Source: Phycisphaerales bacterium
Lineage (GTDB): Bacteria > Planctomycetota > Phycisphaerae > Phycisphaerales > UBA1924
Reading direction: 5' to 3'
Length of the DNA stretch: 64,000 nucleotides
Assembly (NCBI GenBank): GCA_020850415.1
Contig: JADZER010000010.1
Span: 77,459 to 141,458 of the forward strand
Made by a program: the position numbers and the translations under genes. Below, piece by piece: positions 21,144 through 64,000 of the stretch. Under the pieces are notes generated by a model that made no database searches, had not been told where the DNA came from, and was given only the letters and a program-made list of their open reading frames with translations. Position 1 is the stretch's first letter. The number at the start of each line of letters is the position of its first letter.

Positions 21144-21190
21144 GGTGGCGATGCCTCCCGCCGCCCGGCGCGGCGTACCGTCGTGTCCGA

Positions 21191-22483
<1,293 letters not shown>

Positions 22484-22725
22484 GGTTCGGGCCTCCGGGA
22501 GCCCCCGCGCCTGCGTCCCGGCGGGAGGCACGGGATTCTAGGGACGAGACCCTCCGATTTCGACCTCGCGATCAACCGCCTCCCACCCCCCTGCCAGGGT
22601 CGAGAGAGCGGCCCGATCGCGCCCTCGGGGCGATTTCCGCGCGGCGCCCGGGCCGGGTAGCGGGCCGGGCGGTCGCCGGAGGCACGCCAAGGGTGGTGCC
22701 GCGGTGGTTGGCGTCTCCGCGCCGG

Positions 22726-41420: not shown

Positions 41421-41453
41421 TCGGGCACAATAGCCAAGGCGAGATCGACTGCC

Positions 41454-44908: not shown

Positions 44909-45317
44909 CGAGCAACGGGGGCCGACCCCTCCCCGCCAAGCCGCAACCACCACGGCGCGCCGGCCAGGGCGCCCCCGGGGCACTCAACGAGGTCGTCGTG
45001 CCCCTGGCGGGGCGAGTGACCGACCGGGCGAAGCCCCCGGCCCCCGCGCCAGCGGCCTCTGCGGGTGGCCTACCGGGGTGCTGGTCCGGCTCCCCGACGC
45101 TCGCGCGGGGGCCTGAGCAACCCCGGTTGCGTGGGTTCGCAGGACCGGGCCATCAGGAATGGTCAGCCAGCCGACCGCGTGGTCGGGCCGCAGGTCTCTG
45201 GCGTTGGGATCTCGTGGAACCCCCCGTCCCACCGTGGATCGCGGTGCGCGATAGACTCTCCCCTTGGGGGCACTGTCGCTGGACGGGGGCGCCGGTGTCG
45301 CGTCAGGAGGGACCACG

Positions 45318-48185: not shown

Positions 48186-48881
48186 ATGCAGCTCGGAGTC
48201 CGGGATGTCGCGTCCCAGTTCGGCGTGTCGGACAAGGTGGTTCTCCGGTGGGTCGACGAAGAGGGCCTGCCGGCGTCGAAGGTGGACGGGCAGTACCGCT
48301 TCAACCCGTCGGCCCTGTTCGAATGGGCCACCGGCCGGGGCATGCAGGTCCCGCCCGCGCTCTTCCGCGAGCCGCAGAACGGAGACCGCGAGGTCCTGCC
48401 GGACCTGGTTGATGCACTCCGCGCCGGTGGTGTGGTGCGAGACATCCCGGGGACCGACAAACGGTCGGTGCTGGCGGCGCTGATCGGGCACCTGCAGCTC
48501 CCCCGGAATGTCGACCGGGACGGGCTGCTGCAGATCGTCATGGCCCGGGAGCAGCTCGGCTCGACCGGGATCGGCGAGGGGATCGCGATCCCCCATGTGC
48601 GGAACCCGATCGTGCTCCGCGTGCCCAAGCCGATGCTCCTGCTCGGACTGCTTCAACAACCGATCGACTACGGGGCCGTCGACCGCAACCCGGTCCATTC
48701 GCTGTTCCTGGTCATCACCCCGACGACACGCTCCCACCTGCACATCCTCTCCCGGCTTGGGTACATCCTGCAGGACCGTGGCATCCGTGAATTGCTCAAG
48801 AGCCGCGCCCCCTCGGAGCAGTTGCTGGGCGCGATGGCGGCGGTCGAGTCGAAGATCCCTCACTCTGCCAAGACTGGATGA
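48186..48881 (+). CDS. HTH (excisionase/MerR-like) + PTS EIIA type-2 (PtsN-like) fusion regulator
   Basis: The N-terminal LGVRDVASQFGVSDKVVLRWVDEEGLPASKVDGQYRF is HTH-like. The C-terminal EIIA-2 fold carries GEGIAIPHVR (candidate phosphorylatable His). It stops 7 nt before the first gene of the Hyf-like cluster. Confidence 0.8.
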   Translation: MQLGVRDVASQFGVSDKVVLRWVDEEGLPASKVDGQYRFNPSALFEWATGRGMQVPPALFREPQNGDREVLPDLVDALRAGGVVRDIPGTDKRSVLAALIGHLQLPRNVDRDGLLQIVMAREQLGSTGIGEGIAIPHVRNPIVLRVPKPMLLLGLLQQPIDYGAVDRNPVHSLFLVITPTTRSHLHILSRLGYILQDRGIRELLKSRAPSEQLLGAMAAVESKIPHSAKTG

Positions 48882-48887
48882 ACCGAC

Positions 48888-50942
48888 ATGGGGGGTGACC
48901 CCGAGCACAGCTTGGTATCGCTCCTGGCGGTCTGGCTCCCCCTTGTCGGGGCCGCGATCGTCGGGGCGAGCGGGCTGCCGGGGCTCTTCTTGGCTCGAAG
49001 GTCGGCGCCGGGGGCGTGGACGGCGGCGGTCCTCCACCTGCTCGGCGCCGCGGCGGCGCTCGGGGGGGCGGCCGCGTCCGTCGTCACCGTGGGCGCGACA
49101 TCCCTGGATCTGCCGTGGGGGCTGCCCTTCGGTTCATTCCGGGTCGAGCTCGACGGGCTGAGCGCCGCGTTCTTGGTGCCGCTCGCCCTCGTGCCGGCGC
49201 TCGGGTCGGTCTACGGGCTGCGGTATTGGAGCCCGCGGGCGCACCCCGACACCAGCAGGAAGCTGCGGGTGTTCTACGGGATCCTCGCCGCCTCCCTGAT
49301 CCTCCTCACTGTCGCGCGTGACGGCGTGCTCTTCCTGTTCGCCTGGGAGGGGATGGCGCTCTCCGCGTTCTTCCTCGTCACGATCGACGACCGCGACGAC
49401 CAGGCCCGGTCCGCCGGATGGGTGTACTTCGTCGCCACCCATGTCGGCACCCTCGCGCTGTTCGGGCTCCTCGCGGCGGTCGCTTCGGCCGGCGGCTCAT
49501 TCGGGCTCGACCCGCTGCCCGACACGGCGGCGCCCCTCGGGGTGGGGACGGTCATCTTCCTGCTCGGCCTCATCGGGTTCGGTCTGAAGGCGGGGATCAT
49601 GCCGCTGCATGTGTGGCTCCCCGGTGCGCACGCGGTGGCGCCGAGCCATGTGTCCGCGGTGCTCTCGGGGGTCGTGCTCAAGGTCGGTATCTACGGGCTG
49701 GCGAGGCTGACCTGCATGCTGCCCCATCCCCCCGTGTTCTGGGGCGGGCTCCTGCTCACGCTCGGCGTGGTCAGCGGCATCGTCGGTGTGCTCTTCGCGG
49801 TGGCGCAGCATGACCTCAAGCGGCTGCTCGCCTACCACAGCATCGAGAACATCGGGATCATCACCATGGGCCTCGGGCTGGCGATGCTCGGCCGTTCCTA
49901 CGGGCGCGCGGATTGGATGGCGCTGGGGCTCGGGGGCGCCATCCTCCATGTCTGGAATCACGCCTTTTTCAAGTCGCTCCTGTTCATGGCGGCCGGGGCG
50001 GTGATCCACCGGGTGCACACCCGCGAGATCGACCGGATGGGCGGCCTCGCCAGGTCGATGCCGATCACCGGCGCGCTGTTCCTGTGTGGGGCGGTCGCCA
50101 TCTGTGGCCTGCCGCCCCTCAACGGGTTCGTCAGTGAGCTGCTGATCTATCTCGGACTCCTTCGGACGGTGCAGCCGATCGACGGCGTCGCCGCGGCCGG
50201 AGCGGCGTTCGCCGTGCCCGCGCTGGCGATCATCGGCGCTCTGGCCGTCGCGTGCTTCGTGAAGGTCTTCGGCGCGGTCTTCCTGGGCTCCCCGCGGGAG
50301 CATCACGACGCGACCCCGTCAGAGGCTCCGGGGTCGATGCTCGCGCCGATGCTGGTGCTCGCGGCGGTGTGCGTGGGGATCGGGGCGCTGCCCGCTCTGG
50401 CGCTGCCGTTCCTCGATGCCGCCGCACGCGCATGGTCGGTGGGAGCGCACGCGGAGGCGCTGCCGCTGGGCCTGCTCGCGCCCCTGTGGTGGGTCAGTGC
50501 GCTCGCCGGCGCCACATGGCTGTTCGCCATTCTCCTGGCGCTGGGCCTGCGGCGCCTCGTGCGACCGCCCGGCGCGGCCCGCGTGGGCACTTGGGACTGC
50601 GGGTATGCCGCGCCGTCCGCGCGGATGCAGTACACGGCTTCGTCGTTCGCGCAGATCCTCGTGGGGCTGTTCGCGTCGGTGCTGCACCCCCGCGAGCGAC
50701 GCCCCCGCGTGGGCCGCCTGTTCCCCCGAGGCAGAAGCTACAGCAGCCATGTGCACGATGTCGTGCTGGCGGAGTGGGTTGTGCCCGCCGTCGCGGTGCT
50801 GGCGCGCCAGGCCGCGCGCCTCCGGATCATCCAGGCCGGTCACATCCAGCTGTACATCCTCTATGTTCTCCTTATCGTGATCGCGCTCGTGCTGTCGGCC
50901 GTGCCGCTCCTTGACCTGCTGCGGAGCCTTGTCACGCGATGA
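48888..50942 (+). CDS. Hyf/Ehr complex antiporter-like subunit (HyfB/NuoL-like), copy 1
   Basis: A 684-aa polytopic Mrp/NuoL-type proton-conducting membrane transporter (GIMPLHVWLPGAHAVAPSHVSAVLSGVVLKVGIYG, LLAYHSIENIG). Confidence 0.9.
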   Translation: MGGDPEHSLVSLLAVWLPLVGAAIVGASGLPGLFLARRSAPGAWTAAVLHLLGAAAALGGAAASVVTVGATSLDLPWGLPFGSFRVELDGLSAAFLVPLALVPALGSVYGLRYWSPRAHPDTSRKLRVFYGILAASLILLTVARDGVLFLFAWEGMALSAFFLVTIDDRDDQARSAGWVYFVATHVGTLALFGLLAAVASAGGSFGLDPLPDTAAPLGVGTVIFLLGLIGFGLKAGIMPLHVWLPGAHAVAPSHVSAVLSGVVLKVGIYGLARLTCMLPHPPVFWGGLLLTLGVVSGIVGVLFAVAQHDLKRLLAYHSIENIGIITMGLGLAMLGRSYGRADWMALGLGGAILHVWNHAFFKSLLFMAAGAVIHRVHTREIDRMGGLARSMPITGALFLCGAVAICGLPPLNGFVSELLIYLGLLRTVQPIDGVAAAGAAFAVPALAIIGALAVACFVKVFGAVFLGSPREHHDATPSEAPGSMLAPMLVLAAVCVGIGALPALALPFLDAAARAWSVGAHAEALPLGLLAPLWWVSALAGATWLFAILLALGLRRLVRPPGAARVGTWDCGYAAPSARMQYTASSFAQILVGLFASVLHPRERRPRVGRLFPRGRSYSSHVHDVVLAEWVVPAVAVLARQAARLRIIQAGHIQLYILYVLLIVIALVLSAVPLLDLLRSLVTR

Positions 50943-52918
50943 GACCGATCGAACTCATCCTGGTCGCGGCGGCGCTGCAGGCGTGCAGCGGACTCCCCGG
51001 GCTGCTGGGGACCGGGCCGTCCCGATGGGGCGAGCGGACGGCCGCCGCCATGTTCGCCCTCGCCGCCGCGCTCGGGATGCTGGGCGTGCTCCTGCCGGCG
51101 GACGGGACCGACACACCACTCTCGGCGTCGTGGGGGCTGCCCGGGGGGGACCTCGCGGTCGCGATCGACCCCGTGAGCCGCGCCTTCCTGTTGCCGGTGC
51201 TTCTGATTCCCGCGCTCGGCGCGGTCTACGGCCTCGGGTATTGGCGCCAGGCCGACCACCCGACCAACGGGCGGAAGCTCAGGGTGTTCTACGGCTTGAT
51301 GCCGGCGGCGATGACCGTCGTCGTCCTGGCGCAAAACGGGATCGTGTTCCTGATGGCGTGGGAGGTCATGGCGATCGCCGGGTTCTTCCTGGTGAGCACC
51401 GAGGACGACCAGCGGGCGTCCCGAGAGGCCGCGTGGGTGTACTTCATCGCGGCGCACCTCGGGACATTGTGCCTGTTCGGGATGTTCGCGGTGCTGCACA
51501 GCGCCGCGGGGTCCTTTGACTTTGACGCCATCGCCGCCTCGCGCATGGCCCCGCCGCTGACCACCGCCGCGTTCCTGCTCGGTCTGATGGGATTCGGGAT
51601 AAAGGCGGGCCTCATGCCGCTGCATGTGTGGTTGCCCGGGGCGCACGCGAACGCTCCGAGCCATGTCTCGGCGGTGCTCTCCGGCGTGATGCTTAAGATG
51701 GGCATCTACGGCCTGGTCAGGATGACCTCGCTCCTCCCGGCACCGCCGACATGGTGGGGCGGCGCCCTGCTGGCGCTCGGGGCCGTCTCCGCGATCCTCG
51801 GCCTGGTGTTCGCGATGGCGCAGCACGACCTCAAGCGCCTGCTGGCGTACAGCAGCATCGAGAATGTCGGTGTCATCACGATCGGGCTGGGCCTGGCGCT
51901 GCTGGGCCGCTCGACGGGGAACCCGGCCTGGGCGGTTCTCGGCCTGGGGGGGGCCATCCTCCATGTCTGGAATCACAGCCTGTTCAAGCCGTTGCTGTTC
52001 TTCGGGGCCGGCTCGATCCTGCACGGCGCGGGGACGAGGCAGATCGATCACCTCGGCGGGCTCTCACGCCGAATGCCGCGGACGGCCGGGCTCTTCCTGG
52101 TCGGTTGCGTGGCGATCTGCGCCCTGCCCCCCCTCAACGGCTTCGCCAGCGAGTTGCTGATCTACCTGGGTCTGCTCGGCACGCTGGACGGACAGGGCGG
52201 GCTTCCATCCGCGGCCGCCGTGGTCCCGGTGCTCGCGCTGGCCGGAGGGTTGGCCGCCGTCGCGTTCGCCAAGCTCTTCGGAACGGCATTCCTCGGGGAG
52301 CCGCGGACCGAGACCGCGCGGCACGCGCACGAGTCTCCGCTCGCGATGATCCTCCCCATGTCAGTTCTCGCCGCGCTCTGCGTCGCGGTCGGGGCGTTCG
52401 CCGCCGTCCTGGCCCCGCTCCTCGATCGGGCGATCGCGGGCTGGTGGTCGGCGGTCGGCACGCAGGTTCCGTCGGTGGTGGAGGTCTCGCCCCTGCGGTG
52501 GTTGCCGCTCACCAGCGCGGCGATCTTCCTGGTGTCCGGCGTCGCCATCGTCGCGCTCCGCCGGGCCATGCGCACCACGGCGATCCGCCCGGGCACATGG
52601 GACTGCGGGTACGCCGAGCCCAGCCCCCGGATGCAGTACACCGGCTCGTCCTTCTCGCAGTTTGCGGGGTCTCTCTTCTCGTGGGCCCTGCTCCCCCGCG
52701 TCGACGCGCCGAGGATCAGAGGGCTGTTCCCGCCGACCGGCCGCTTCCGATCGGAGGTGCCCGACGCGGTCCTCGACCGGATGGTGCTCCCATCGGCACG
52801 CCTGGCCACGCATTTCCTGCGCTGGGCGCGCGTGCTCCAGCGGGGCAAGATCCAGATCTACATGCTGTATGTCCTGCTGACGGTGCTCGCCCTGTTCGTC
52901 TCAACCTTTGTGCTGTAG
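50939..52918 (+). CDS. Hyf/Ehr complex antiporter-like subunit (HyfB/HyfD-like), copy 2
   Basis: A 659-aa paralog of the upstream gene (GLMPLHVWLPGAHANAPSHVSAVLSGVMLKMGIYG, LLAYSSIENVG). ATGA overlap with copy 1. Confidence 0.9.
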   Translation: MRPIELILVAAALQACSGLPGLLGTGPSRWGERTAAAMFALAAALGMLGVLLPADGTDTPLSASWGLPGGDLAVAIDPVSRAFLLPVLLIPALGAVYGLGYWRQADHPTNGRKLRVFYGLMPAAMTVVVLAQNGIVFLMAWEVMAIAGFFLVSTEDDQRASREAAWVYFIAAHLGTLCLFGMFAVLHSAAGSFDFDAIAASRMAPPLTTAAFLLGLMGFGIKAGLMPLHVWLPGAHANAPSHVSAVLSGVMLKMGIYGLVRMTSLLPAPPTWWGGALLALGAVSAILGLVFAMAQHDLKRLLAYSSIENVGVITIGLGLALLGRSTGNPAWAVLGLGGAILHVWNHSLFKPLLFFGAGSILHGAGTRQIDHLGGLSRRMPRTAGLFLVGCVAICALPPLNGFASELLIYLGLLGTLDGQGGLPSAAAVVPVLALAGGLAAVAFAKLFGTAFLGEPRTETARHAHESPLAMILPMSVLAALCVAVGAFAAVLAPLLDRAIAGWWSAVGTQVPSVVEVSPLRWLPLTSAAIFLVSGVAIVALRRAMRTTAIRPGTWDCGYAEPSPRMQYTGSSFSQFAGSLFSWALLPRVDAPRIRGLFPPTGRFRSEVPDAVLDRMVLPSARLATHFLRWARVLQRGKIQIYMLYVLLTVLALFVSTFVL

Positions 52919-53046
52919 AGGAACCAACGCATGACAGCGTCGCGCCTGCCGACTCTTGACGATCCGGGATGCCGCCGGGCGGGTTGCGCTCGCTGCGGCC
53001 GGCCGGGCGCTCCGCACGCCCTCGGCGGCCCGATGGGGGATGCTCC

Positions 53047-53964
53047 ATGATCGACACGGCTGTGCAGGTTGTGCTGCTCCTGGTGATGCCGCCCCTGCTG
53101 CTCGGCGTGATCACCAAGACCAAGGCCGCGATCGCGGGCAGGGTCGGGGCCCCGCTCCTGCAGCCGTACCACGACATCATCAAGCTCCTCCGCAAGGGCT
53201 CGGTCCTGAGCCGCACGACCACCTGGGTCTTCCTCGCCGGCCCCGCGGTCACATGCGCCGCGGTGCTTCTGGCGGGCCTCCTGGTCCCCATGGGCGGCCA
53301 GCCGGCCCCGATCCGGTTCGCCGGCGACCTGATCCTCTTCGCGTACCTGCTCGCCCTGGGGAGGTTCTTCACCACGATCGCCGCGCTCGATACCGGCTCC
53401 TCGTTCGAGGGGATGGGGGCGGCGCGCGAGGTAACCTTCGCCTGCCTCGCGGAGCCGGCGCTGTTCTTCGGGCTCCTGGCCCTGGCCAGGCTGACCGAGG
53501 GGCTGAGCCTCTCGGCGTTCTTCGGCCCGGGTGTCGCCAGCGCGTGGGTCGATGCCGCCCCGAGCATGGTGCTCGTCCTCGCGGGCCTCTTCATCGTGCT
53601 GCTCGCCGAGAACTCACGCATCCCCTTCGACGACCCGAACACCCACCTCGAGCTAACGATGATCCACGAGGTCATGGTGCTCGACCACGGCGGACCGGCG
53701 CTGGGCACGGTCCTGTACGGCGCGGCGGTCAAGCTCTTCGTCCTCTCCTCGCTCGTGGCGCGCCTGGCCGTCCCGATGGAAACCGGCCAGCCCCTGCTGC
53801 GGTGGCCGGTGTTCATCGCTTCCGTGCTCATGGTCGCGGTAGTGATCGGGCTGGTCGAATCGACCATGGCGAGGCTGCGGCTGCTGCATGTGCCCAACCT
53901 CCTTGTGGGCGCGTGCCTGCTGACCGGGTTCGGGTTCATCCTTCTTCTGGGGTCGCCGCGATGA
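53047..53964 (+). CDS. Hyf/Ehr complex membrane subunit (HyfC/HycD/NuoH-like)
   Basis: The N-terminus MIDTAVQVVLLLVMPPLLLGVITKTKAAIAGRVGAPLLQPYHDIIKLL matches the HycD/NuoH layout. It also contains the ENSRIPFD and EL.MIHE motifs. Confidence 0.9.
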   Translation: MIDTAVQVVLLLVMPPLLLGVITKTKAAIAGRVGAPLLQPYHDIIKLLRKGSVLSRTTTWVFLAGPAVTCAAVLLAGLLVPMGGQPAPIRFAGDLILFAYLLALGRFFTTIAALDTGSSFEGMGAAREVTFACLAEPALFFGLLALARLTEGLSLSAFFGPGVASAWVDAAPSMVLVLAGLFIVLLAENSRIPFDDPNTHLELTMIHEVMVLDHGGPALGTVLYGAAVKLFVLSSLVARLAVPMETGQPLLRWPVFIASVLMVAVVIGLVESTMARLRLLHVPNLLVGACLLTGFGFILLLGSPR

Positions 53965-54602
53965 GTTCCGCCACCGACGCGCTCTTGGTCCTGATCCTCC
54001 TGCTGAACTTCTTCGTGCTCGGTTCCAGCCGGATCCGCTCCATCATCTACACGATCGCCGCGCAGGGCCTGCTGCTGGGTGTTCTGCCCCTGCTGGTGCA
54101 CGAGAGCATCGGCGTGCGCGAGGGGCTGGTGAGCGTCGGCGCGATCGCGCTCAAGTCCGTCGTGATCCCGCGCATGCTCCTGCGGGCGATGGCCGACCTC
54201 CCGATCCGGCGCGAGATCGAGCCGCTCGTGGGCTACCGCACCTCGCTGCTGCTCGGCGCCGCCGCCACGGGCGCGTCGATGGCGCTGGCCGCCCGTTTGC
54301 CGCTGGAGATCGTCCACCCGCCGCCGCTGCTCGTCCCGGCCTCGTTCGCCACGGTCCTCACCGGGTTCATCGTGCTGACCACCCGCACCAAGGCCATCAC
54401 GCAGGTGCTGGGGTACCTGATGCTGGAGAACGGCATCTTCATCTTCGGGGTGCTGCTGCTCGAGGCGATGCCGTTCCTGGTCGAGGTCGGGGTGCTGCTG
54501 GACCTCTTCGTCGCGATCTTCGTGATGGGGATCATCATCAACCACATCAGCCGAGAGTTCGCGTCGGTCAGCACCGAGCGCCTGGCGGAGCTGAGAGAAT
54601 GA
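53961..54602 (+). CDS. Hyf/Ehr complex membrane subunit (HyfE-like)
   Basis: A 213-aa hydrophobic protein with ATGA overlap to the upstream gene. The LMLENGIFIFGVLL motif is typical of HyfE/hydrogenase-4 component E. Confidence 0.85.
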   Translation: MSSATDALLVLILLLNFFVLGSSRIRSIIYTIAAQGLLLGVLPLLVHESIGVREGLVSVGAIALKSVVIPRMLLRAMADLPIRREIEPLVGYRTSLLLGAAATGASMALAARLPLEIVHPPPLLVPASFATVLTGFIVLTTRTKAITQVLGYLMLENGIFIFGVLLLEAMPFLVEVGVLLDLFVAIFVMGIIINHISREFASVSTERLAELRE

Positions 54603-56041
54603 TACTCGCACTCACACTGGCCGGTGTCCCCCTGTGCGGCGCGGCGATCGCGTACGCCATCCCGTCGAACACGGCGCGACCACTGGTGCTGCCCGTGTGC
54701 GCGCTCGCGCACCTGGCCGCGGCAGTGGCGGCGTTCGCGGGGGTTGACGCGGGCGCCGGCTGGCTCGCCCTCGACCCGCCGGGCCGGCTCGTGCTGCTCC
54801 TGGTGAGCGTCCTCTTCGCCGCCTGCTCGTTCTACGCAGTGGGGTACCTCCGGCTCCGTGGCGAGCGCGACAACAAGGTGTTCTGCGCCTGCCTGCTGGC
54901 GTTCCTGGGCATGACGAGCCTGATCGCCTGCGCCCAGCATCTCGGGCTCTTCTGGGTCGCGGTCGAGGCGACCACGCTCTCCAGCGCACCGCTGCTGTAC
55001 TTCAACCGCACGGGGCATTCGCTCGAAGCGACATGGAAGTACCTGCTCATCGGCTCGGTGGGGATCGCGCTCGCGCTGCTCGGGTCGCTCTTCCTCGGCT
55101 ACTCGGCTCTGGCCGGGGGCCAGGACTCCTCGCTCCTCTTCGATGACCTGGTCAGGAACGCCCCGAGCTTCTCCAAACCGTGGCTCCACGGCGCGTTCAT
55201 CCTCCTCTTCGTCGGCTACGGCACGAAGATGGGCCTCGCGCCCATGCACACATGGAAGCCCGACGCCTACGGCGAGACCCCCGGCGTTGTCGGCGCCCTG
55301 CTCGCCGGAGGATTGACCAGCTGCGCCTTCCTGGGCATCGTCCGGACATTCCGTGTGGTGGTCGCGGCCGGCGAGGCCGAGTTCGCCAGCCAGATCCTGG
55401 TGGTCATGGGCGTCGTGTCGATGGCGGTCGCCGGGGTGTTCATGGTGCAGCAACGAGACTTCAAACGCATGCTGGCCTACTCCAGCGTCGAGCACATGGG
55501 GCTGCTGATCCTGGGCCTGGGCCTGGGGCCCGTGGGCGCGTACGGCTCGCTCCTGCACATGGTGAACAACGGCCTGGTCAAGGGCGTTATGTTCCTCACC
55601 GCGGGCAACATCCATCGCGCCTACGAGAGCAAGTCGACCGACGAAGTCTCGGGCGCGCTCCGGAGGCTGCCATGGTCCGGCGGGCTCTTTCTCGCCGGAT
55701 TCATCGCCGTGACGGGATCCCCGCCCTTCGCCCCGTTCGTCAGCGAATTCACCATCCTGAACGCAGCCATCGGCGAGGGACGGTACATCATCGGCGGCCT
55801 CATGCTCGTACTCCTCCTGGTGATCTTCATGGGGATGGGGGCGACCGTCCTGGCGGTCGTGCAGGGACAACCATCGGCGCGAGCGAAGCGGACACCCTTC
55901 CATGACCGGGCCATCACGATCCTGCCCCCGCTCGTGCTGATGACCGGCGTGGTCATCCTTGGCCTCTTCGTGCCCGCGCCGCTGCGCCGCACGATCGAAG
56001 AGGCCGTGCGATTCCTCGGATTCCCGGAGCCCCAGCCGTGA
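54599..56041 (+). CDS. Hyf/Ehr complex antiporter-like subunit (HyfF/NuoN-M-like)
   Basis: A 480-aa polytopic protein (GLAPMHTWKPDAYGETP, MLAYSSVEHMG). ATGA overlap upstream and GTGA overlap downstream. Confidence 0.9.
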   Translation: MILALTLAGVPLCGAAIAYAIPSNTARPLVLPVCALAHLAAAVAAFAGVDAGAGWLALDPPGRLVLLLVSVLFAACSFYAVGYLRLRGERDNKVFCACLLAFLGMTSLIACAQHLGLFWVAVEATTLSSAPLLYFNRTGHSLEATWKYLLIGSVGIALALLGSLFLGYSALAGGQDSSLLFDDLVRNAPSFSKPWLHGAFILLFVGYGTKMGLAPMHTWKPDAYGETPGVVGALLAGGLTSCAFLGIVRTFRVVVAAGEAEFASQILVVMGVVSMAVAGVFMVQQRDFKRMLAYSSVEHMGLLILGLGLGPVGAYGSLLHMVNNGLVKGVMFLTAGNIHRAYESKSTDEVSGALRRLPWSGGLFLAGFIAVTGSPPFAPFVSEFTILNAAIGEGRYIIGGLMLVLLLVIFMGMGATVLAVVQGQPSARAKRTPFHDRAITILPPLVLMTGVVILGLFVPAPLRRTIEEAVRFLGFPEPQP

Positions 56042-57567
56042 TCAATGTGTCCCGCTTCCTCACGATGGGCAACGCCGACCCGGTGGAGCACAGCGATATC
56101 CCCGTGCTGCCGTTCGACCAGTTCAGATCCGATGTCGTCGGGGCAATCGCCGATGGGCTCCGCCTCGGGGCCCTGACCGCCCGCGCCGAGAGCGACCACT
56201 CCGTGCGCATCTACGCGGTCCTGCTCGACGACCTGACGGGCTTGATCCACGCCGCCAGCGCGACAACCCCGCACGGCTCGTTCCCGTCCCTCACGCCGGA
56301 CTGCCCCCAGGCGCACCTGTTCGAGCGAGAGATCACCGAGCAGCTCGGGGTCGAGCCCCGCGGCCACCCATGGCTGAAGCCGGTCCGCTTTCACGCGGCC
56401 TACTCCGGACGCCCCCAGCCGTGGGCCGGCCCCGACGGGGCGCCTCCCCTCATCGGTGTCACCGACTACTTCAGGGTGGAGGGCGACGAGGTGCACGAGG
56501 TCGCCGTGGGCCCGGTCCACGCCGGGATCATCGAGCCGGGGCACTTCCGGTTCCAGTGCCACGGCGAGGAAGTGTTCCACCTGGAGATCTCGCTCGGCTA
56601 CCAGCACCGCGGGATCGAGCGTCGCCTCCTGGGCGGGCCGGACCGGCGCACCATCCACTACTTCGAAACGCTGGCCGGCGATACCACGGTCGGTCACACC
56701 ATGGCGTACTGCCACGCCGTCGAGGCCCTGATCGGCCTCCATGCCCCGGCCCGAGCGCAGGCCCTGCGCGGCATCGCCCTCGAGCTGGAGCGCCTGGCCA
56801 ACCATGTCGGCGACCTCGGCGCCCTGGCGGGGGATGTGGGCTTCCTGCCCACCGCCGCGTACTGCGGCCGCCTCCGCGGGGACTTCCTGAACATGACCGC
56901 GGCGATGTGCGGGAGCCGCTTCGGCCGGGACCTCGTCCGCCCGGGCGGCGTGGTCTTCGATCTCGAGCCCGAGCAGGTCGGCGCCCTCACCAGCCGCCTC
57001 GCCGACGCCGAACGAGACACCGCCTCGGCGGTCAACCTGCTGTGGAACACCCCGTCCGTCATGGCGCGGCTCGAAGACACCGGCCGGCTCGAGCGCGGCA
57101 CCGCCGAGAGCATCGGGCTCGTCGGGCCCGCCGCACGGGCGTGCGGGATCAGCCGCGATGTACGCCACGACTTCCCATCCGGGATCTACCAGTTCAGCCA
57201 CCTGCCGGTCTCCACATGGGGCACCGGCGATGTGTTTGCCCGTGCGTATGTGCGCTGGCTGGAGATTCAGCAGTCGATCCGGTTCATCCGCGAGCAGCTC
57301 CAGGTGCTGCCCGGGGGGCCCTGCATCGCGGAGGTGGGCCCCCTGCCGCCGGGCCGGTTCGTGGTCTCGCTGATCGAGGGCTGGCGCGGCGAGATCTGTC
57401 ACATCGCGACGACCGGCCCCGACGGCGCCTTCGCCCACTACAAGGTGATCGACCCCTCGTTCCACAACTGGTTCGGGCTGGCGCTCGCCCTCCGCGGGCA
57501 ACAGATCTCGGACTTTCCCCTCTGCAACAAGAGCTTCAACCTGTCGTACTCGGGGCATGACCTCTAG
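56038..57567 (+). CDS. NuoC-NuoD/HycE-like 'large subunit' lacking NiFe-binding cysteines (Ehr-type)
   Basis: GPVHAGIIEPGHFRF and LGYQHRGIE place it in the group-4 hydrogenase/NuoD family. Where HycE-type proteins have R.CG.C...H, this protein has LAGDTTVGH. The C-terminus is DFPLCNKSFNLSYSGHDL instead of DPC..C. Confidence 0.9.
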   Translation: MINVSRFLTMGNADPVEHSDIPVLPFDQFRSDVVGAIADGLRLGALTARAESDHSVRIYAVLLDDLTGLIHAASATTPHGSFPSLTPDCPQAHLFEREITEQLGVEPRGHPWLKPVRFHAAYSGRPQPWAGPDGAPPLIGVTDYFRVEGDEVHEVAVGPVHAGIIEPGHFRFQCHGEEVFHLEISLGYQHRGIERRLLGGPDRRTIHYFETLAGDTTVGHTMAYCHAVEALIGLHAPARAQALRGIALELERLANHVGDLGALAGDVGFLPTAAYCGRLRGDFLNMTAAMCGSRFGRDLVRPGGVVFDLEPEQVGALTSRLADAERDTASAVNLLWNTPSVMARLEDTGRLERGTAESIGLVGPAARACGISRDVRHDFPSGIYQFSHLPVSTWGTGDVFARAYVRWLEIQQSIRFIREQLQVLPGGPCIAEVGPLPPGRFVVSLIEGWRGEICHIATTGPDGAFAHYKVIDPSFHNWFGLALALRGQQISDFPLCNKSFNLSYSGHDL

Positions 57568-57819
57568 CCCCGCCCGGTGACCGCCCCGAGGAGGCCCCAT
57601 GCAGACCGACAAGACCAGCCTCGCACACCTGCCGGGGCACTACCCCCACGCCGCAGGAAGCGCCGAGGTGAGCAGAGACCCGCGCAGCCGATGGCCTCGA
57701 TGCGTTCGCGCTCTCACGCTCGCCGGCTGTGACACCCTCGGGGGCCCCGGACGACGACGCGGCGTGCCGCTCCCCCCATCGAGGCGAGCGCCGCCGCAAT
57801 CCGGATCGGAGACCCAACA

Positions 57820-58605
57820 GTGATCCATGTGCTTCTGGCCCGCTACCGTCAACGACACCGGACGATGCGCTACCCGGCCGGCCCGCCGCCCGAACTGCCC
57901 GCCCACTTCCGCGGCCGGCCGACCATCGACGCGGCCAGGTGCCCCCCGGCGTGCCGCGAGTGTGCCGAGGCCTGCCCAACGCAGGCGATCACGATCAACG
58001 GGACGCCCCGGATCGACCTGGGCCGATGCCTCTTCTGCACGGACTGCCTGCGGGCATGCCCGTCCGACGCGATCGCGTTCTCGCGCGACTATCGGCTCTC
58101 GACGGACACGCGTGAAGCGCTCGTCATGGAGGACAATGTGCTCGAACTGGCCCGAGGACTCCAGGGAAAGACGCGACGCCTCTTCGGCAGATCGCTCAAG
58201 CTCCGTCAGGTGTCGGCCGGCGGGTGCAACGGCTGCGAGATGGACACCAATGTCCTGAGCACCATCGGCTGGGACCTGGCCCGGTTCGGCATCCAGTTCG
58301 TCGCCTCGCCGCGCCACGCCGACGGCCTCCTCGTCACCGGCTGCGTGACGGAGAACATGCAGCTCGCGCTGCAAAAGACCTACGACGCGTTAACACCGCC
58401 GAAGATCGTCATCGCCGTCGGGGCCTGCGCGATCTCCGGGGGACCATTCATCGATCACCCCGAAGGCCACAACGGCGTCACCGGGCGGCTCCCCGTCGAC
58501 CTGTTCATCCCCGGGTGCCCGCCGCACCCGCTGACCATCCTCGACGGCCTGCTGCGGTTCCTGGGCCGGATCGACCCGGAGCCGACCCCCGGGCAACGCA
58601 CATGA
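57820..58605 (+). CDS. Fusion of 2x[4Fe-4S] ferredoxin (HycF/NuoI-like) and NuoB/HycG-like small subunit
   Basis: The N-terminal half carries CPPACRECAEACP and CLFCTDCLRACP. The C-terminal half carries GGCNGCE, GACAISGG and GCPPHP, which together supply the four Cys of the N2-type cluster. The start is GTG at 57820. Confidence 0.88.
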   Translation: MIHVLLARYRQRHRTMRYPAGPPPELPAHFRGRPTIDAARCPPACRECAEACPTQAITINGTPRIDLGRCLFCTDCLRACPSDAIAFSRDYRLSTDTREALVMEDNVLELARGLQGKTRRLFGRSLKLRQVSAGGCNGCEMDTNVLSTIGWDLARFGIQFVASPRHADGLLVTGCVTENMQLALQKTYDALTPPKIVIAVGACAISGGPFIDHPEGHNGVTGRLPVDLFIPGCPPHPLTILDGLLRFLGRIDPEPTPGQRT

Positions 58606-58798
58606 GCCAACCTCCGACCTGCGACGCCAGCCGCTCCACGCCCGCTCCCCTGGCGTGGATGCGCCCGCGTTGGGCAGCGTCGGACCCCTGATCGGGGCTC
58701 TCCCCCTCCCCGCGCCACGGCCGGCGCTCCATACCCTGTGCACCCCGACCACGAGAGCCCCCGGCACAGAGAACGGGGCAGGTCGCAAGGATCAGACG

Positions 58799-59968
58799 AT
58801 GTTCGTTGCCCAAGCCCATTCCTTCACGCAGCAGGCCCGGCTCGCGATCTCGCTTGCCTGGGTCGCCGGCTACACCAACATCCTGACGGTTATCACCTGC
58901 GGCACGGTCACATCGCATCTATCCGGGACCGCCTCGAATCTTGGTCGGCAAGTCGCCGAGGGTTCGTGGTCGCTCGCGTGGTTCTCGTTCCTCCTGCTCG
59001 TGGCCTTTGTCCTCGGTGCGATGGCGTCCGGAGCGCTCACCGAACTGGGCCGCCGCCGCGGGTGGGAGTCGATCTATGTGCTCCCGATCGCCGTGGAAGC
59101 GGTCCTCCTGGCGGCATTCGCCGTGGGGGTGGAGGTGCACGATCACGGAACCCGCCAGAGCGGCGTTCCGCTCTACTGGCTCACCGGCATCGCGTCGTGC
59201 GCCATGGGATTGCAGAACGGGACCATCACACGCATCTCGTCCGGAGTCGTCCGCACCACGCACATCACAGGGGTGCTGACGGACCTGGGCCTTGAGACAA
59301 CCCAGTTCCTCCTGTGGGCACGCGATCGCGGCCGCGATTCCCCGCCCGTGCCGCCGCGCTCGTTGCTGCGCAGCGCGAGCGTTCACCCCACCGCGCGGCG
59401 GCTGGCGCTCCTGGCATCAATCGTCGGGTCGTTCGCCGTCGGCGGTGGCCTGGGCACACTCGCGCACGGGTTCGCCGAGCGGTGGGCGATGTTCCCCCCC
59501 GTCGTCTTCTTGATATGGCTCATCTACAGGGACCTGGTCATTCCCATCGCGGAAGTCGAGCCGTCGGAACTCGTGGGTGGAGAGAACGGTCTGCAACTGC
59601 CGACGACCATGGCGGTCTTTCATGTGCGCAACGAGAAGGACCATCGCGGCAAGGCGCACCGCATGCCCGACCTGCAGGCGTGGGGAGAACGGCTACCCGC
59701 AACCGTGCGGGTGGTCGTGCTCGATCTGGGGGAAATGGCCACATTCGACAGCAACGCGGTCATGGAACTGCGCGCGGTGCTCAGGAGCTTCGCGACGCAG
59801 AACAGGAAGCTGCTGATCACGGGACTGGGCTTCGAGCAGTTCCAGGAACTCCGCCGAGTCGGCTCGACCGAGTTCCTCGACCTGACCAACTTCTGTCCGG
59901 ACCTCGAGCTCGCGATCGCCCGGGCAATGATCATGGTCGAGAGCATCCCCGCGCCCAACCGCGCGTGA
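58799..59968 (+). CDS. DUF1275/YoaK-family membrane protein fused to a C-terminal STAS domain
   Basis: The membrane half has the YoaK-like motifs VTSHLSGTASNLG and GLQNGTITRISSGVVRTTHITGVLTDLG. The C-terminal ~110 aa look STAS-like (VVVLDLGEMATFDSNAVMELRAVL...LLITGL). ATG at 58799 is chosen inside track ORF 58655..59968. Confidence 0.72.
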   Translation: MFVAQAHSFTQQARLAISLAWVAGYTNILTVITCGTVTSHLSGTASNLGRQVAEGSWSLAWFSFLLLVAFVLGAMASGALTELGRRRGWESIYVLPIAVEAVLLAAFAVGVEVHDHGTRQSGVPLYWLTGIASCAMGLQNGTITRISSGVVRTTHITGVLTDLGLETTQFLLWARDRGRDSPPVPPRSLLRSASVHPTARRLALLASIVGSFAVGGGLGTLAHGFAERWAMFPPVVFLIWLIYRDLVIPIAEVEPSELVGGENGLQLPTTMAVFHVRNEKDHRGKAHRMPDLQAWGERLPATVRVVVLDLGEMATFDSNAVMELRAVLRSFATQNRKLLITGLGFEQFQELRRVGSTEFLDLTNFCPDLELAIARAMIMVESIPAPNRA

Positions 59969-60017: not shown

Positions 60018-60521
60018 ATGACTCGGGCCCCCCGGCCGCGTCATCGGCCTCGAACGCGTCCCAACAGCGAGCGCGCCGAGTACACCCGCGACGAGGCCCT
60101 CATCGGCCTGGGGCACTGGGACCTCGACCGTCGCCCCGACTTCCGCGAGGGCGTGCTCCACATCCCTGACCGCAAGAGCGACGCGTTCTTCGTGACCCTG
60201 CACAAGACCGAGGACGCGTACTCCCCAACGACCATGTACGAGGACTACGCGATCAGCGACCAGCTCTTCCACTGGCAGTCCCAGAGCACCACCTCGGCCG
60301 ATTCGCCTACCGGCCAACGCTACACCCGCCACCGCGAGCAGGGCTACACGCCCATGCTCTTCGTCCGCGAACGCAAGGCCCTTCCCAGCGGTCTCGCCTC
60401 CCCCTACGCCTTTCTCGGCCCGGCGGATCATGTATCTCACAGCGGCAGCCGCCCGATCAGCATCGTGTGGCGATTGCGGACCCCAATGCCGACGCGCCTC
60501 GCGCGAGTCGCAGTTGGCTAG
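60018..60521 (+). pseudogene. Orphan C-terminal DUF3427-like fragment (normally the tail of a large helicase/nuclease protein)
   Basis: Residues ..REGVLHIPDRKSDAFFVTLHKTEDAYSPTTMYEDYAISDQLFHWQSQSTT..GQRY..LFVRERK..PYAFLGPA..H.G.RPISIVWRL..PMP match my recollection of the DUF3427 domain. No helicase domain lies upstream. The N-terminal 30 aa are Arg/Pro junk. Confidence 0.5.
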
Positions 60522-61653: not shown

Positions 61654-64000
61654 ATGAAGCGAGAGCAGGCCATCTTCGGTCGATGGACGAGCGTCGTTTC
61701 CTGCGGGGTAGTAGCGGCTGGCGTGTGGGGTCTGGCGAGTGGGGCGGTTCATTCCTCGCTGGGCTTCGTCATCGACTACCTCGCGTCGGTCCGCGCTGAT
61801 GTGTTGTCAACCGCGGTGCTCGTGCTGGTCGTGGCCGCTTGCTGGCCGTTTGGGCGGCGGCGCTGGCTGGCATTCCTCGGACTTCGACACCTCGGAACCT
61901 ACCCACCTCTGTGGATCGCTGTCGCAGTTGCCTTGCTGATCATTGGAGTCTACGAGGGGATCGCCGGGCGATGGGAACCGGCGATTGCGGGGCCAGGCCT
62001 GATCTGGTCGCTGATCACGACGGCTCCCGCTTGGGTTTGGCTCGCAGCCGGTGTCGTCCTGGGGACGCGCCTCCTTCACAAGAGTTGGCCAGCAGCAAAC
62101 GCCCGAGCGCCAGACGGTGATGGTGGTGGTCTCTCGGCGCTGATCACTTGGTTACGTGATGATCACGAGATTTCCCAGCCTCACGAAGACCGGTTCGGTC
62201 ACGATGCTGTGGCCACTCGCATCGCCGAGCGTCTCAAAGCCCAGGGCGAAAGTCCGACCATGGCTGTCGTTGGACCTCTCGGTTCTGGCAAGTCCACGAT
62301 TCGCCAGCTTGTTGAGCATCACTTGGGTACGCAACGCTCGACCGTGATGGTCCATCTCAGTCTTTGGCCGTTTGATACTCCCGACGCCGCTGTCGCTGGG
62401 ATCATCCGGTCCGTCATCCGAGCGTTGGGGCAGCGAGTGAACGTTCTGGCCATTGCCGGGCTGTCCGAACGCTATGTGGAGGTCATTGAGCGTACCGGCG
62501 GACGCTGGGGTGTCCTAGCGAGGCTGATGCGTGGGGACTCCAGGCCCGACGTGATCCTCCGGTCTCTGGCGACCATTGCGACTGCGGCAGGTCTTAAACT
62601 CGTTCTCTGGATCGAGGACATGGAGCGATTCACCGGGGCTGACCGACTCGGCCCGGAAGATGCGGCCATCAGAGAGGCAGAACGACTCGGGCCGATTCTG
62701 TCGCTTCTCGTGCTGCTCGATCGGTGCGACTCGATCTCGGTTATCGTCGGCGACACATCGCTGCGCTCGCGGTTGGATGTCGGAAAGATAGCCCGATTCG
62801 TCGAGAGTCCTCCCCGTCCGGGTGCGAAGGAGATCTGGCGGCAGATCGAATCCCTCCGATCAGCGTGCCTTTCCGAAGACGTACTTGATCCGGCCAGTGA
62901 AGAGTGTCGCGCAGTACTCACTCCGCCCGAGAGCGACCTTCAATACGGTATTTGGTTGTGGAGTGTCCGGGACAGCGAACCGCGCATTCAAGAAGCGCTT
63001 CCATTGCTGCTAACCACACCACGATCGTTCAAGTGGGCACTTCGTATCACATGGGAGACCTGGGAGCGACTAGCCGGTGAAGTTGATATCGACAGCGTAC
63101 TGGTCGCGTCCGCTCTCAGGGTGTCTCGGCCGGAGCTGTTTGCGTTTATTGATGAACATGTGGATCTCATGCGAAGCGGCTTTCGTGATCCAGTCGCCAG
63201 TGTCGACGGTCAACGATCTGCGCATCCGGTGTTTGAGCAACTCCGTGCCTTGCTGGACAAGGAGAACACTGAGCGAATGCGAAATGCAGTCGCTACCGCG
63301 ATCGGCTTTGTGTTCCCTGCAGTATTCAGCCACTACGAGCGCGATCGTGATTACATGGAGCGCCCCCAAGGTCTAGGTGTAGCGCGCCATGCAGACTACT
63401 GGCAGCGATACCTGACGCTCCCGGTTATCGCGGAGGGAATCAGTGATCAATCGGCATTGAAGGCGATCGCTGCTTCGAAGACCGGCCAGAGTAGTGACCT
63501 GGTGGCAAGGCTCATGGATGCCGAACGCTCCGAACAAGTCGAGACGTTCGTCGGGCAGTTTGACGCAGAACACCTCTGCCGACTCCTGACGGAGCTGGTA
63601 GCCGTTCTCCAGGATCAATCTGCACGGGCGTGGGAAGACGGGCGACATGCACCCGGCATTGTGCCAGTATGGCGCATGATGCACCGACGCCAACCTCCCG
63701 TGGCTTTGCTGGGTGACACGCTTGTCCGAGTCATGAGTGCATTGGCAATGCGGCATTTGCCGCTGACGCAAGACATCTGGTACTACTTCGCGGAAGAACA
63801 GCATGGAAGTGTCTCCAGTCTACTTGATGACGTTCAGCGCGAACGGGTCCGAGTCGCCATCCGCGGGGGCATGGTGGGCACCTTCAAACAGAATGCTGGC
63901 GATCGCCTATTGCAGGCGATGCACCATGGCTCGCCATGGGTTGTCTGGTATCTCTGCATGGCGGTTGCGACCAATGAAGCCGGGGGGCCGCCATTTGATG
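61654..64000 (+). CDS. Membrane-anchored KAP-like P-loop NTPase (3' end outside window; absent from supplied ORF track)
   Basis: My own translation of the frame containing 61654. A stop (TAA) lies at 61627-61629, the ATG is at 61654, and there is no stop to position 64000. The N-terminal ~150 aa hold about 4 TM helices. Next comes DDHEISQPHEDRFGHDAVATRIAERL...VVGPLGSGKST (Walker A, 62272-62298) and Walker B-like LKLVLWIEDMERF. Local G+C is about 60% against about 68% elsewhere. Confidence 0.8.
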   Translation, partial: MKREQAIFGRWTSVVSCGVVAAGVWGLASGAVHSSLGFVIDYLASVRADVLSTAVLVLVVAACWPFGRRRWLAFLGLRHLGTYPPLWIAVAVALLIIGVYEGIAGRWEPAIAGPGLIWSLITTAPAWVWLAAGVVLGTRLLHKSWPAANARAPDGDGGGLSALITWLRDDHEISQPHEDRFGHDAVATRIAERLKAQGESPTMAVVGPLGSGKSTIRQLVEHHLGTQRSTVMVHLSLWPFDTPDAAVAGIIRSVIRALGQRVNVLAIAGLSERYVEVIERTGGRWGVLARLMRGDSRPDVILRSLATIATAAGLKLVLWIEDMERFTGADRLGPEDAAIREAERLGPILSLLVLLDRCDSISVIVGDTSLRSRLDVGKIARFVESPPRPGAKEIWRQIESLRSACLSEDVLDPASEECRAVLTPPESDLQYGIWLWSVRDSEPRIQEALPLLLTTPRSFKWALRITWETWERLAGEVDIDSVLVASALRVSRPELFAFIDEHVDLMRSGFRDPVASVDGQRSAHPVFEQLRALLDKENTERMRNAVATAIGFVFPAVFSHYERDRDYMERPQGLGVARHADYWQRYLTLPVIAEGISDQSALKAIAASKTGQSSDLVARLMDAERSEQVETFVGQFDAEHLCRLLTELVAVLQDQSARAWEDGRHAPGIVPVWRMMHRRQPPVALLGDTLVRVMSALAMRHLPLTQDIWYYFAEEQHGSVSSLLDDVQRERVRVAIRGGMVGTFKQNAGDRLLQAMHHGSPWVVWYLCMAVATNEAGGPPFD

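Follow-up and report, generated by a model that had tools for sequence, protein, structure and literature searches.

A hydrogenase-like large subunit without NiFe ligands in a putative Ehr-type membrane complex of an uncultured Phycisphaerales planctomycete

Described Ehr and Hyq complexes and the planctomycete locus

The superfamily uniting complex I and the group-4 [NiFe] hydrogenases includes membrane complexes named Ehr (energy-converting hydrogenase-related; also Hyq, or 'group-4f-like'), the defining published trait of which is a kinship with group-4 hydrogenases combined with the loss of the NiFe ligands (PMC4758237, PMC6349859, PMC3357923, PMC10284858, PMC12342949). This type has been described since 2005–2013 from Geobacter, rhizobia, Nitrospira and Mycobacterium tuberculosis (Rv0082-87); the survey by Degli Esposti lists both names, 'ehr' with reference to Marreiros et al. 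2013 and 'hyq' with reference to Sprecher et al. (PMC4758237), and Ehr has been reported as a phylogenetic neighbour of group 4f. The same definition is used by Matheus Carnevali et al., according to whom the partners and acceptors are unknown (PMC6349859). The present analysis concerns a gene from a 64-kb stretch of DNA of an uncultured Phycisphaerales planctomycete (contig JADZER010000010.1, positions 77,459 to 141,458; the whole stretch is called here the window), which, judged from its sequence and that of its neighbours, very probably encodes the large subunit of an Ehr-type membrane complex.

Several members of the family have been reported under different physiological headings. The Geobacter sulfurreducens system GSU0739-45, comprising EhrA-1 (NuoL-like), EhrC (HyfE-like), EhrL and EhrS, was most abundant on formate. 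The Ehr of Nitrospira moscoviensis showed no induction by H2, its function being still stated as unknown in a 2025 paper, and the M. tuberculosis genes Rv0081-87, standing under the transcriptional hub Rv0081, were described as an Ehr complex for which a hydrogenase function is excluded by the absence of the maturation genes. In Azorhizobium caulinodans, HyqG is a 504-residue NuoC::D fusion that has no CxxC motifs and possesses a conserved Cys-491 (PMC3357923).

The window gene (Table 1) is the seventh one in a cassette of eight genes on the same strand, the stop and start codons of which mostly overlap; its GTG start codon lies in a 4-nt overlap with the end of the preceding hyfF-like gene, stop codon included, and it codes for 509 residues with the architecture of a NuoC::NuoD fusion homologous to Escherichia coli HycE (Pfam matches PF00329, NuoC, weak, and PF00346, NuoD, strong). 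All the features by which Ehr is recognised were found together: a large subunit homologous to those of group 4 and to NuoD, in which both CxxC motifs and with them the Ni/Fe ligands are missing; a NuoB-like small subunit with the [4Fe-4S] ligands; and NuoH-like, HyfE-like and Mrp/NuoL-type subunits in one operon. The four cysteines in the motifs L1 and L2 that mark a group-4 [NiFe] hydrogenase are not present. The complex as a whole has the architecture of Hyf (formate hydrogenlyase 2, FHL-2), with two HyfB, HyfC, HyfE, HyfF, a NuoC::D large subunit and a small subunit fused from NuoI and NuoB.

It should be pointed out that the complex belongs to a family already known and named, and that specialists would hardly be astonished by it. 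The ligand loss, treated in an earlier sequence-only reading of this DNA (the original prediction) as a surprise, is a rediscovery of the published property by which Ehr/Hyq complexes are defined, and alone changes nothing. The value of the locus lies rather in the open question of the Ehr reaction: Ehr stands at the evolutionary junction of hydrogenases and complex I, belongs to the most widespread members of the complex I/group-4 hydrogenase superfamily with no known reaction, and counts M. tuberculosis Rv0082-87 among its members. What is added here are the exact replacement residues and the conservation of each of them, the evidence that the odd C-terminal tail was inherited from Cys-bearing, group-4f-like enzymes, and a nearly universal gene for a PtsN-like protein that combines a helix-turn-helix (HTH) with an EIIA domain and accompanies this Ehr type, offering a regulatory handle on the conditions of its use.

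Compared with the Geobacter Ehr GSU0739-GSU0745 (Coppi 2005; Marreiros et al. 2013), a comparison based on the published subunit list, the window shares the seven structural genes, including more than one copy of the NuoL-like EhrA, the HyfE-like EhrC, an EhrL devoid of NiFe ligands and EhrS; the HTH-EIIA gene and the NuoI-NuoB fusion of the window, on the other hand, are not mentioned in the literature examined. The Hyq systems of A. caulinodans and other rhizobia (hyqRBCEFGI) follow the same order as the window, i.e. regulator-B(-B)-C-E-F-G-I, and their HyqG of about 505 residues is, like the window protein, a NuoC::D fusion lacking both CxxC motifs, with the common tail DFPLCNKSFN.SYSGHDL; by position from the C-terminus, C496 of the window protein corresponds to Cys-491 of A. 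caulinodans. At the hyq locus of a Rhizobium plasmid (HTH, hyfB, NuoH, hyfE, hyfF, large, NuoB), the large subunit is 38% identical, its L1 reads GRVSGDSTVAY and its tail DFPLCNKSFNCSYSGHDL. The differences concern the small subunit, which in Rhizobium is a plain NuoB-like HyqI of 177 residues whereas that of the window carries an extra 2x[4Fe-4S] domain; the regulator, HyqR at the Rhizobium locus being an HTH protein of 98 residues without the EIIA domain found in the window; the number of HyfB copies, one in Hyq against two in the window; and an extra cysteine in Hyq (...FNCSY...). Moreover, Hyq is under NifA/sigma-54 control, whereas no sigma-54 site was found for the window cassette; a search for NifA/sigma-54-type promoters gave fewer matches than expected by chance, none of them upstream of the operon.

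A Methylocystis cluster called 'group 4f', apparently of the Hyq type, is strongly induced at acid pH (bioRxiv 10.1101/2025.08.29.672306). Its motifs PLHQIPVGP...ANGExVVRL...AARVS match those of the Cys-less Rhizobium HyqG (SLHQIAVGP...ANGETVVRL...GRVSGD), and the cluster may therefore be no hydrogenase at all but belong to the Ehr/Hyq complexes.

In Rhodococcus, a locus arranged as in M. tuberculosis (about 36% identity) has QRISGDTTIGH as L1 and DFPLTNKSFNLSYAGNDL as the tail; the type represented by the M. tuberculosis genes Rv0082-Rv0087 ('hyc'/formate-hydrogenlyase-like, DosR/Rv0081-regulated) differs from the window in having the NuoB-like gene first, no Fer4 fusion and no tail cysteine. 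A Variovorax locus (43% identity) possesses the Fer4-NuoB fusion as in the window. Among true hydrogenases, the E. coli Hyf and Hyc complexes (HyfBCDEFGHI; HycE in FHL-1, 7Z0S) consist of the same subunits, encoded in the same sequence (B, C, E, F, G, H, I), and share the EPGHFR proton-relay loop. Unlike the window protein, however, HycE and HyfG have the four cysteines and a C-terminal extension that a protease cleaves off, HyfH and HyfI are encoded separately, and Hyc/Hyf is accompanied by the donor module HyfA/HycB + FdhF and by hyp genes, while the window cassette has no donor module.

The replaced NiFe site and its conservation

Concerning the relationships of the large subunit, phmmer against the PDB retrieved HycE (7z0s_E; E=3e-47) ahead of Pyrococcus furiosus MbhL (6cfw_L; 6e-33) and Thermus thermophilus Nqo4 (2fug_4; 1e-32), and the hallmark motifs named in the original prediction (GPVHAGIIEPGHFRF, LGYQHRGIE and ERLANH) are all present in the translation. 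An AlphaFold2 model (pTM 0.82, with low confidence at the pocket-forming residues 140–174 and 492–509, so that no structural argument is based on it and no pocket geometry inferred) matched best in Foldseek the fold of HycE (7z0s_E; TM-score 0.79), followed by NuoCD subunits. The columns of the metal ligands were set by three independent alignments, i.e. phmmer to the PDB chains, MAFFT with HycE, HyfG and NuoCD of E. coli MG1655 included, and a family profile of 51 sequences against the PDB, all three giving the same placement. HycE DRVCGICGFAH pairs with ETLAGDTTVGH and HycE SLDPCYSCTDR with SFNLSYSGHDL, so that the four cysteines are replaced, respectively, by A213, T216, S503 and G506; in the MAFFT alignment T211 also takes the place of the L1 Arg, and N501-L502 that of the L2 Asp-Pro. 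As a positive control, HycE, HyfG and four distant relatives (P0239, P0241, P0242 and P0256) show C-C-C-C in the ligand columns of the same alignment.

The original prediction of a loss of at least three of the four cysteines was thus sound, yet understated. The single tail cysteine it had noticed is C496 (PLCNKS), which is aligned to an Ile in HycE and precedes the ligand-3 column by seven residues. The rescue it had considered, by the cysteines of FQCH and AYCH, fails: C174 pairs with a Val and C225 with a Thr of HycE, and neither reaches a ligand column. With all four cysteines gone, the NiFe site cannot exist in this subunit. The protein ends at ...GHDL without a C-terminal protease extension, and the open reading frames (ORFs) scanned in the window revealed neither hyp or hycI genes nor any for formate dehydrogenase or NuoEFG.

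The replacement residues are themselves strongly conserved, as seen in a tally of 121 large-subunit sequences sharing at least 62% identity. The A213 column contains 113 Ala and 6 Ser, T216 is Thr in 114 of the 121 sequences, and G214, D215 and H220 are invariant; the same holds true for C496, N497, K498, L502, S503, Y504, G506 and D508 in the tail and for E166 (IIEPGH), the proton-relay Glu of hydrogenases, as well as H169. The polar residues around the former metal site—D215, T216, T/S217, N497, K498, N501 and Y504—may be counted as invariant in this sense. Position 505, located one residue off the ligand-4 column, is Cys in 91 sequences, Ser in 26, including the window protein, and Ala in 4, so that a cysteine there is dispensable.

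Among more distant homologues, represented by sequences clustered at 50%, the Cys-less x-x-S-G pattern holds down to about 33% identity, and at 33–36% identity Cys-bearing proteins appear with ER[IV]CG[AV]C..SH as L1 and DFPL[IV]NKSF[EN]LCYSC as L2. The latter include the four control relatives, and one such protein (locus L088, 2524-4119) is encoded in the same gene order, matches Pfam NiFeSe_Hases and is accompanied by unfused genes for Fer4 and NuoB. As a group they probably represent group-4f hydrogenases, the closest true hydrogenases to Ehr. Group 4f (HydDB 'Ehf', uncharacterised) shares the gene order with the window, but differs from it by C-C-C-C, the NiFeSe_Hases match and the unfused Fer4 and NuoB genes. 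A homologue of the window protein as much as 76% identical is nevertheless annotated 'hydrogenase, group IVf', and public labels for the homologues are inconsistent in general ('Ni,Fe-hydrogenase III large subunit', 'NADH-quinone oxidoreductase subunit C', 'hydrogenase, group IVf'). The CNKSFNLSY tail, regarded originally as unusual, is nearly frozen among the homologues of the tally, but it is not new: since the Cys-bearing relatives share its scaffold, it represents the inherited L2 scaffold of group 4, in which two cysteines have become Ser and Gly.

Two other cysteines of the large subunit, C174 (FQCH) and C496, are both invariant in the close family, mostly co-occur down to about 37% identity and are both missing from the Rhodococcus/M. 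tuberculosis type. The two could be joined in a disulfide, or take part in one common site close to where the active centre used to be. A new 4-Cys metal site formed by the clade-invariant C174, C276, C291, C454 and C496 was also considered and rejected: in distant members C174 and C496 are the sole ones retained, and most of the five are lacking from the actinobacterial and Hyq types.

The family is large. A protein search yielded at least 8000 large-subunit homologues at E≤1e-10, the best 120 being 62–94% identical, and the nearest one among the matches listed (94% identity; assembly GCA_964268965.1, L001) has an identical gene order. A relative of the large subunit was found in at least 530 species in a scan of one genome per species; the best 80 of these (57–74% identity), all metagenome-assembled genomes, were used for the locus comparisons and span Phycisphaerae and other Planctomycetota, Verrucomicrobiota, Lentisphaerota/Kiritimatiellia, Desulfobacterota, Acidobacteriota, Omnitrophota, Elusimicrobiota, Myxococcota and others. 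The same cassette is present at all 80 loci. Against the 94%-identical relative, the ratio of nonsynonymous to synonymous substitution rates (dN/dS) amounts to 0.14 in the large subunit and to 0.09 in the small one, indicating purifying selection and hence a functional, not a decaying, protein. As had been predicted, the catalytic chemistry must differ, all four cysteines being gone from a gene under purifying selection: the product is, as far as can be read from the sequence, a working protein with a chemistry unlike that of [NiFe] hydrogenases.

The iron–sulfur chain leading to the emptied site is intact, also in agreement with what had been proposed. The NuoB-like domain of the small subunit keeps the four cysteines for the proximal [4Fe-4S] cluster (GGCNGCE, GACAISGG and PGCPP), invariant in comparison with HycG, HyfI and HyqI, in a CxxC arrangement of the hydrogenase type. 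The eight cysteines of its 2x[4Fe-4S] domain, aligned to HycF, HyfH and NuoI, are retained as well. With 12 of the 12 iron–sulfur cysteines in place, a chain of three [4Fe-4S] clusters is retained in the complex.

Electron acceptor and alternative readings

Based on the above results, it appears reasonably likely that the complex takes up electrons from ferredoxin, passes them to an acceptor which is not H+ at a NiFe centre, and couples this oxidoreductase reaction to ion pumping. In such a generic mechanism, a soluble low-potential carrier, most likely ferredoxin, would dock and donate at the NuoI-like domain, as is the arrangement in Ech, Mbh and the photosynthetic NDH-1; no donor module (formate dehydrogenase, NuoEFG) is encoded in the cassette. 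The electrons would go on to the proximal cluster in the NuoB-like domain, which would hand them to an acceptor held where the large, small and NuoH-like subunits meet, in the pocket left empty, the way complex I uses its cofactor-free NuoD. Ion transport by the three antiporter-like subunits would be powered by this reaction, or would itself power it, and the reaction may run backwards. The lack of H2 induction of the N. moscoviensis Ehr and the reported absence of NiFe maturation genes from M. tuberculosis are counted as support against H+ as the acceptor.

As far as the acceptor itself is concerned, a membrane quinone is put forward tentatively, in which case the complex would be a reversible ferredoxin:quinone oxidoreductase. 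Three pump modules would point to a larger driving force than the transfer from ferredoxin to H+ gives, which favours a quinone. The same role would explain the NifA-dependent expression and, through a changed electron supply to nitrogenase, an indirect H2 phenotype in diazotrophs, and likewise the hypoxia regulation in M. tuberculosis and the occurrence of the family in aerobes and anaerobes. The resemblance to the Q-module of complex I consists in a metal-free NuoD-type subunit beside a terminal [4Fe-4S] cluster, the NuoC::D fusion (E. coli) and the antiporter-like pumps. D266 of the window protein corresponds to D139 of Nqo4, but the equivalent Asp is found also in MbhL, so that this residue does not discriminate complex I from hydrogenase. 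In contrast to complex I, neither NuoEFG nor NuoA and NuoJ/K are present in the cassette or in conserved flanks, and the identity is only 22–23%.

Several observations weigh against the ferredoxin-fed oxidoreductase, and against a quinone as its acceptor in particular. While a quinone-like or other acceptor site had been suggested in the original prediction, a quinone site of the complex I type is not indicated, as the two ligands of Nqo4 are not conserved: the column of His38 is occupied by Ile/Val (I165; Ile in 120 of 121 sequences) and that of Tyr87 by an invariant Gly (G214; 121/121). The CxxC of the NuoB-like domain, moreover, stands where complex I has tandem Cys-Cys, and the AlphaFold2 model is weak precisely in the segments forming the pocket. 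Riflemargulisbacteria possess Ehr, although no full pathway of quinone biosynthesis was found in them (PMC6349859). In A. caulinodans, a hyq deletion shifts the H2 evolution about tenfold, which its authors read as hydrogenase activity (PMC3357923), and the searchable literature contains no biochemical assay of any Ehr.

The absence of the quinone ligands, together with the occurrence of Ehr in genomes reported to lack quinone synthesis, would agree also with a different acceptor, reduced directly at the proximal cluster, such as polysulfide in MBS/Mbx of P. furiosus or another small soluble oxidant. A group-4 derivative with a changed substrate has a precedent in Mbx, cited as a hydrogenase-related complex (PMC6349859), and the invariant polar residues around the former metal site speak for this reading, too. 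This alternative is nonetheless rather unlikely: the conserved cassette and flanks contain no genes for sulfur metabolism or substrate-specific ones, MbsL (6u8y_L; E=5e-18) is detectable but far more distant from the window protein than HycE, and the family is shared by aerobes, microaerophiles and strict anaerobes, a range that speaks against a niche acceptor, e.g. polysulfide.

That the complex is still a hydrogenase, with a non-canonical, possibly nickel-free site (an 'endo-hydrogenase', as suggested for Hyq) at which intracellular H2 would be oxidised or evolved with coupling to the quinone pool, is doubtful to a greater degree. The A. caulinodans ΔhyqRBCEFGI mutant evolves about 10–15x more H2 under N2 fixation and less under microaerobic conditions (PMC3357923; PMC2650096), but this evidence is genetic only and would be indirect if Hyq feeds or drains a low-potential pool for nitrogenase. 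The family is sister to the Cys-bearing group-4 enzymes with the same tail scaffold and keeps the proton-relay E166 along with H169/H220 invariant; the four metal ligands, the L1 Arg and the L2 Asp-Pro are gone, however, and the invariant Ser and Gly at positions 503 and 506 cannot hold a metal. No set of cysteines is kept family-wide, the Rhodococcus/M. tuberculosis type being without any tail cysteine. To this should be added the M. tuberculosis and Nitrospira reports mentioned above and the lack of hyp genes among the ORFs scanned in the window.

About equally improbable is a bolder idea, namely that the invariant D215, T216 and H220 together with C496, N497, K498, Y504 and G506-H507-D508 form a new catalytic centre, either cofactor-free or with an alternative metal, which would set Ehr apart from both hydrogenases and complex I as a third class by function, and not as a disguised quinone reductase, its expression being wired by a dedicated PtsN-like HTH-EIIA regulator to the nitrogen phosphotransferase system (PTS). 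Such a centre, if true, would explain the H2 phenotype of the Hyq mutant or catalyse an unknown ferredoxin-dependent membrane reaction.

A redox-gated ion transporter without net catalysis, in which the iron–sulfur chain would sense the redox state of ferredoxin and switch the Mrp-like antiporter module, has even less in its favour. Antiporter-like subunits do dominate the complex and an acceptor site is not recognisable; Ehr-like genes are acid-induced in Methylocystis and stand under hypoxia regulators in M. tuberculosis, and the operon is linked to a PtsN-like regulator, PtsN of E. coli controlling K+ homeostasis. Nevertheless, the extreme conservation of the former active-site pocket, with its tail invariant in the 121 sequences, is hard to explain for a mere sensor, and the complex I superfamily offers no precedent. 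A decaying pseudo-hydrogenase, its ligands recently lost and its gene drifting, has nothing but the ligand loss itself to recommend it and is refuted by the dN/dS of 0.14, the invariant replacement residues, the intact and translationally coupled ORF and the wide occurrence of the homologues (at least 8000 proteins and at least 530 species, with 60–65% identity across phyla).

Cassette, regulator gene and neighbouring genes

The eight genes of the cassette and the other features of the window are summarised in Table 1. No NCBIfam model scored above its cut-off for any of the cassette subunits. The tandem duplication of the HyfB/NuoL-like gene is not general: of 65 related loci, 20 have two copies, these being mainly of the Planctomycetota type, and 45 have a single one, so that the number of pump modules varies within the family. 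The 252-bp spacer between the large- and small-subunit genes is unusual, as in nearly all related loci these two genes abut; it shows little conservation even in comparison with the 94%-identical relative, and an ORF of 74 codons within it, not conserved there either, was rejected as a gene, so that the spacer is probably non-coding.

Table 1 Features of the window discussed in the text
Feature	Position in the window	Strand	Evidence and remarks
Eight-gene cassette	48186-58605	+	Mostly overlapping stop/start codons
HTH_17 + PtsN-like PTS EIIA_2 protein	48186-48881	+	PF12728 + PF00359; best NCBIfam PtsN, below cut-off
HyfB/NuoL-like antiporter-type membrane subunit, copy 1 (EhrA-like)	48888-50942	+	PF00361; NCBIfam hydrogenase 4 subunit B 557 bits, below cut-off
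HyfB/NuoL-like antiporter-type membrane subunit, copy 2	50939-52918	+	PF00361
HyfB/NuoL-like tandem duplication (both copies)	48888-52918	+	
HyfC/HycD/NuoH-like membrane subunit (EhrB-like)	52969-53964	+	PF00146 NADHdh; synteny kept
HyfE-like small membrane subunit (EhrC-like)	53961-54602	+	213 aa; NCBIfam NF008556 'hydrogenase 4 membrane subunit' 79 bits, below cut-off; no Pfam match
HyfF/NuoN-like antiporter-type membrane subunit (EhrD-like)	54599-56041	+	PF00361; best NCBIfam hydrogenase 4 subunit F
Large subunit (EhrL/HyqG-like), NuoC::NuoD fusion without NiFe ligands	56038-57567	+	PF00329 + PF00346; HycE E=3e-47, TM 0.79
C174 codon (FQCH)	56557-56559	+	
Degenerate L1 motif ETLAGDTTVGH	56665-56697	+	Where RxCGxCxxxH is expected; A213/T216 in Cys columns, G214 in Nqo4 Tyr87 column
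Degenerate L2 tail DFPLCNKSFNLSYSGHDL	57511-57564 (with stop to 57567)	+	Where DPCxxCxxR is expected; S503/G506 in Cys columns
C496 codon	57523-57525	+	
Spacer	57568-57819		252 bp
Rejected ORF in spacer	57599-57823		74 aa
Small subunit (EhrS-like), HycF/NuoI-type 2x[4Fe-4S] domain fused to NuoB/HycG-type domain	57820-58605	+	Pfam Fer4 families + PF01058
Two adjacent PPDK_N paralogues	16170-19373; 19389-21215	-	PEP-utilising, ATP-binding
Glutamate dehydrogenase	21191-22531	-	
kdpA-kdpB-kdpC-kdpD-kdpE operon	36953-44908	+	Complete
Ser/Thr kinase-TPR gene	45264-47801		
DUF1275 membrane protein	58655-59968	+	C-terminal extension of about 130 aa
DUF3427 fragment	60018-60521		
Segment of lowered G+C	62001-64000		G+C about 0.60

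The first gene of the cassette, encoding the HTH-EIIA protein, was delimited mechanically as an ORF from 48003, its likely ATG start being at 48186, which gives 231 residues as in the 94%-identical relative. Among related loci from many phyla, 66 include enough upstream sequence to be informative, and 65 of these have a homologue ahead of the operon; the phospho-His motif G.G.AIPH.R is conserved to at least 90%, and no mention of the gene was found in the Ehr/Hyq literature examined. A conserved PtsN-like HTH-EIIA gene at the head of the cassette suggests a control by the nitrogen PTS, i.e. by the carbon, nitrogen and energy status, and the expression of this Ehr is probably tied to the state of nitrogen-PTS signalling through that protein. 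The flanks of the 80 related loci were searched also for formate dehydrogenase, hyp, quinone and sulfur genes as a clue to the donor or acceptor, and nothing was found conserved beyond the cassette.

A complete kdp operon lies upstream of the cassette, the two being separated by a gene for a Ser/Thr kinase with tetratricopeptide repeats (TPR). PtsN of E. coli regulates KdpD, which made the position of kdp near a PtsN-like gene look suggestive; a functional link between kdp and Ehr was considered and rejected, the proximity being taken as a coincidence, as the closest relative (94% identity) does not have kdp beside the cassette.

Directly downstream of the cassette, there is a gene for a DUF1275 membrane protein with a C-terminal extension. 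It adjoins the cassette also in L001, on the same side, and in another related locus (L002), there upstream and on the opposite strand, and in no other lineage. Elsewhere in the window, two large adjacent paralogues with PPDK_N domains (phosphoenolpyruvate (PEP)-utilising, ATP-binding) are adjoined by a glutamate dehydrogenase gene. Finally, behind a DUF3427 fragment and a stretch without convincing genes, the G+C content falls from about 0.69 to 0.60 in the last 2 kb, where a foreign or mobile segment may begin.

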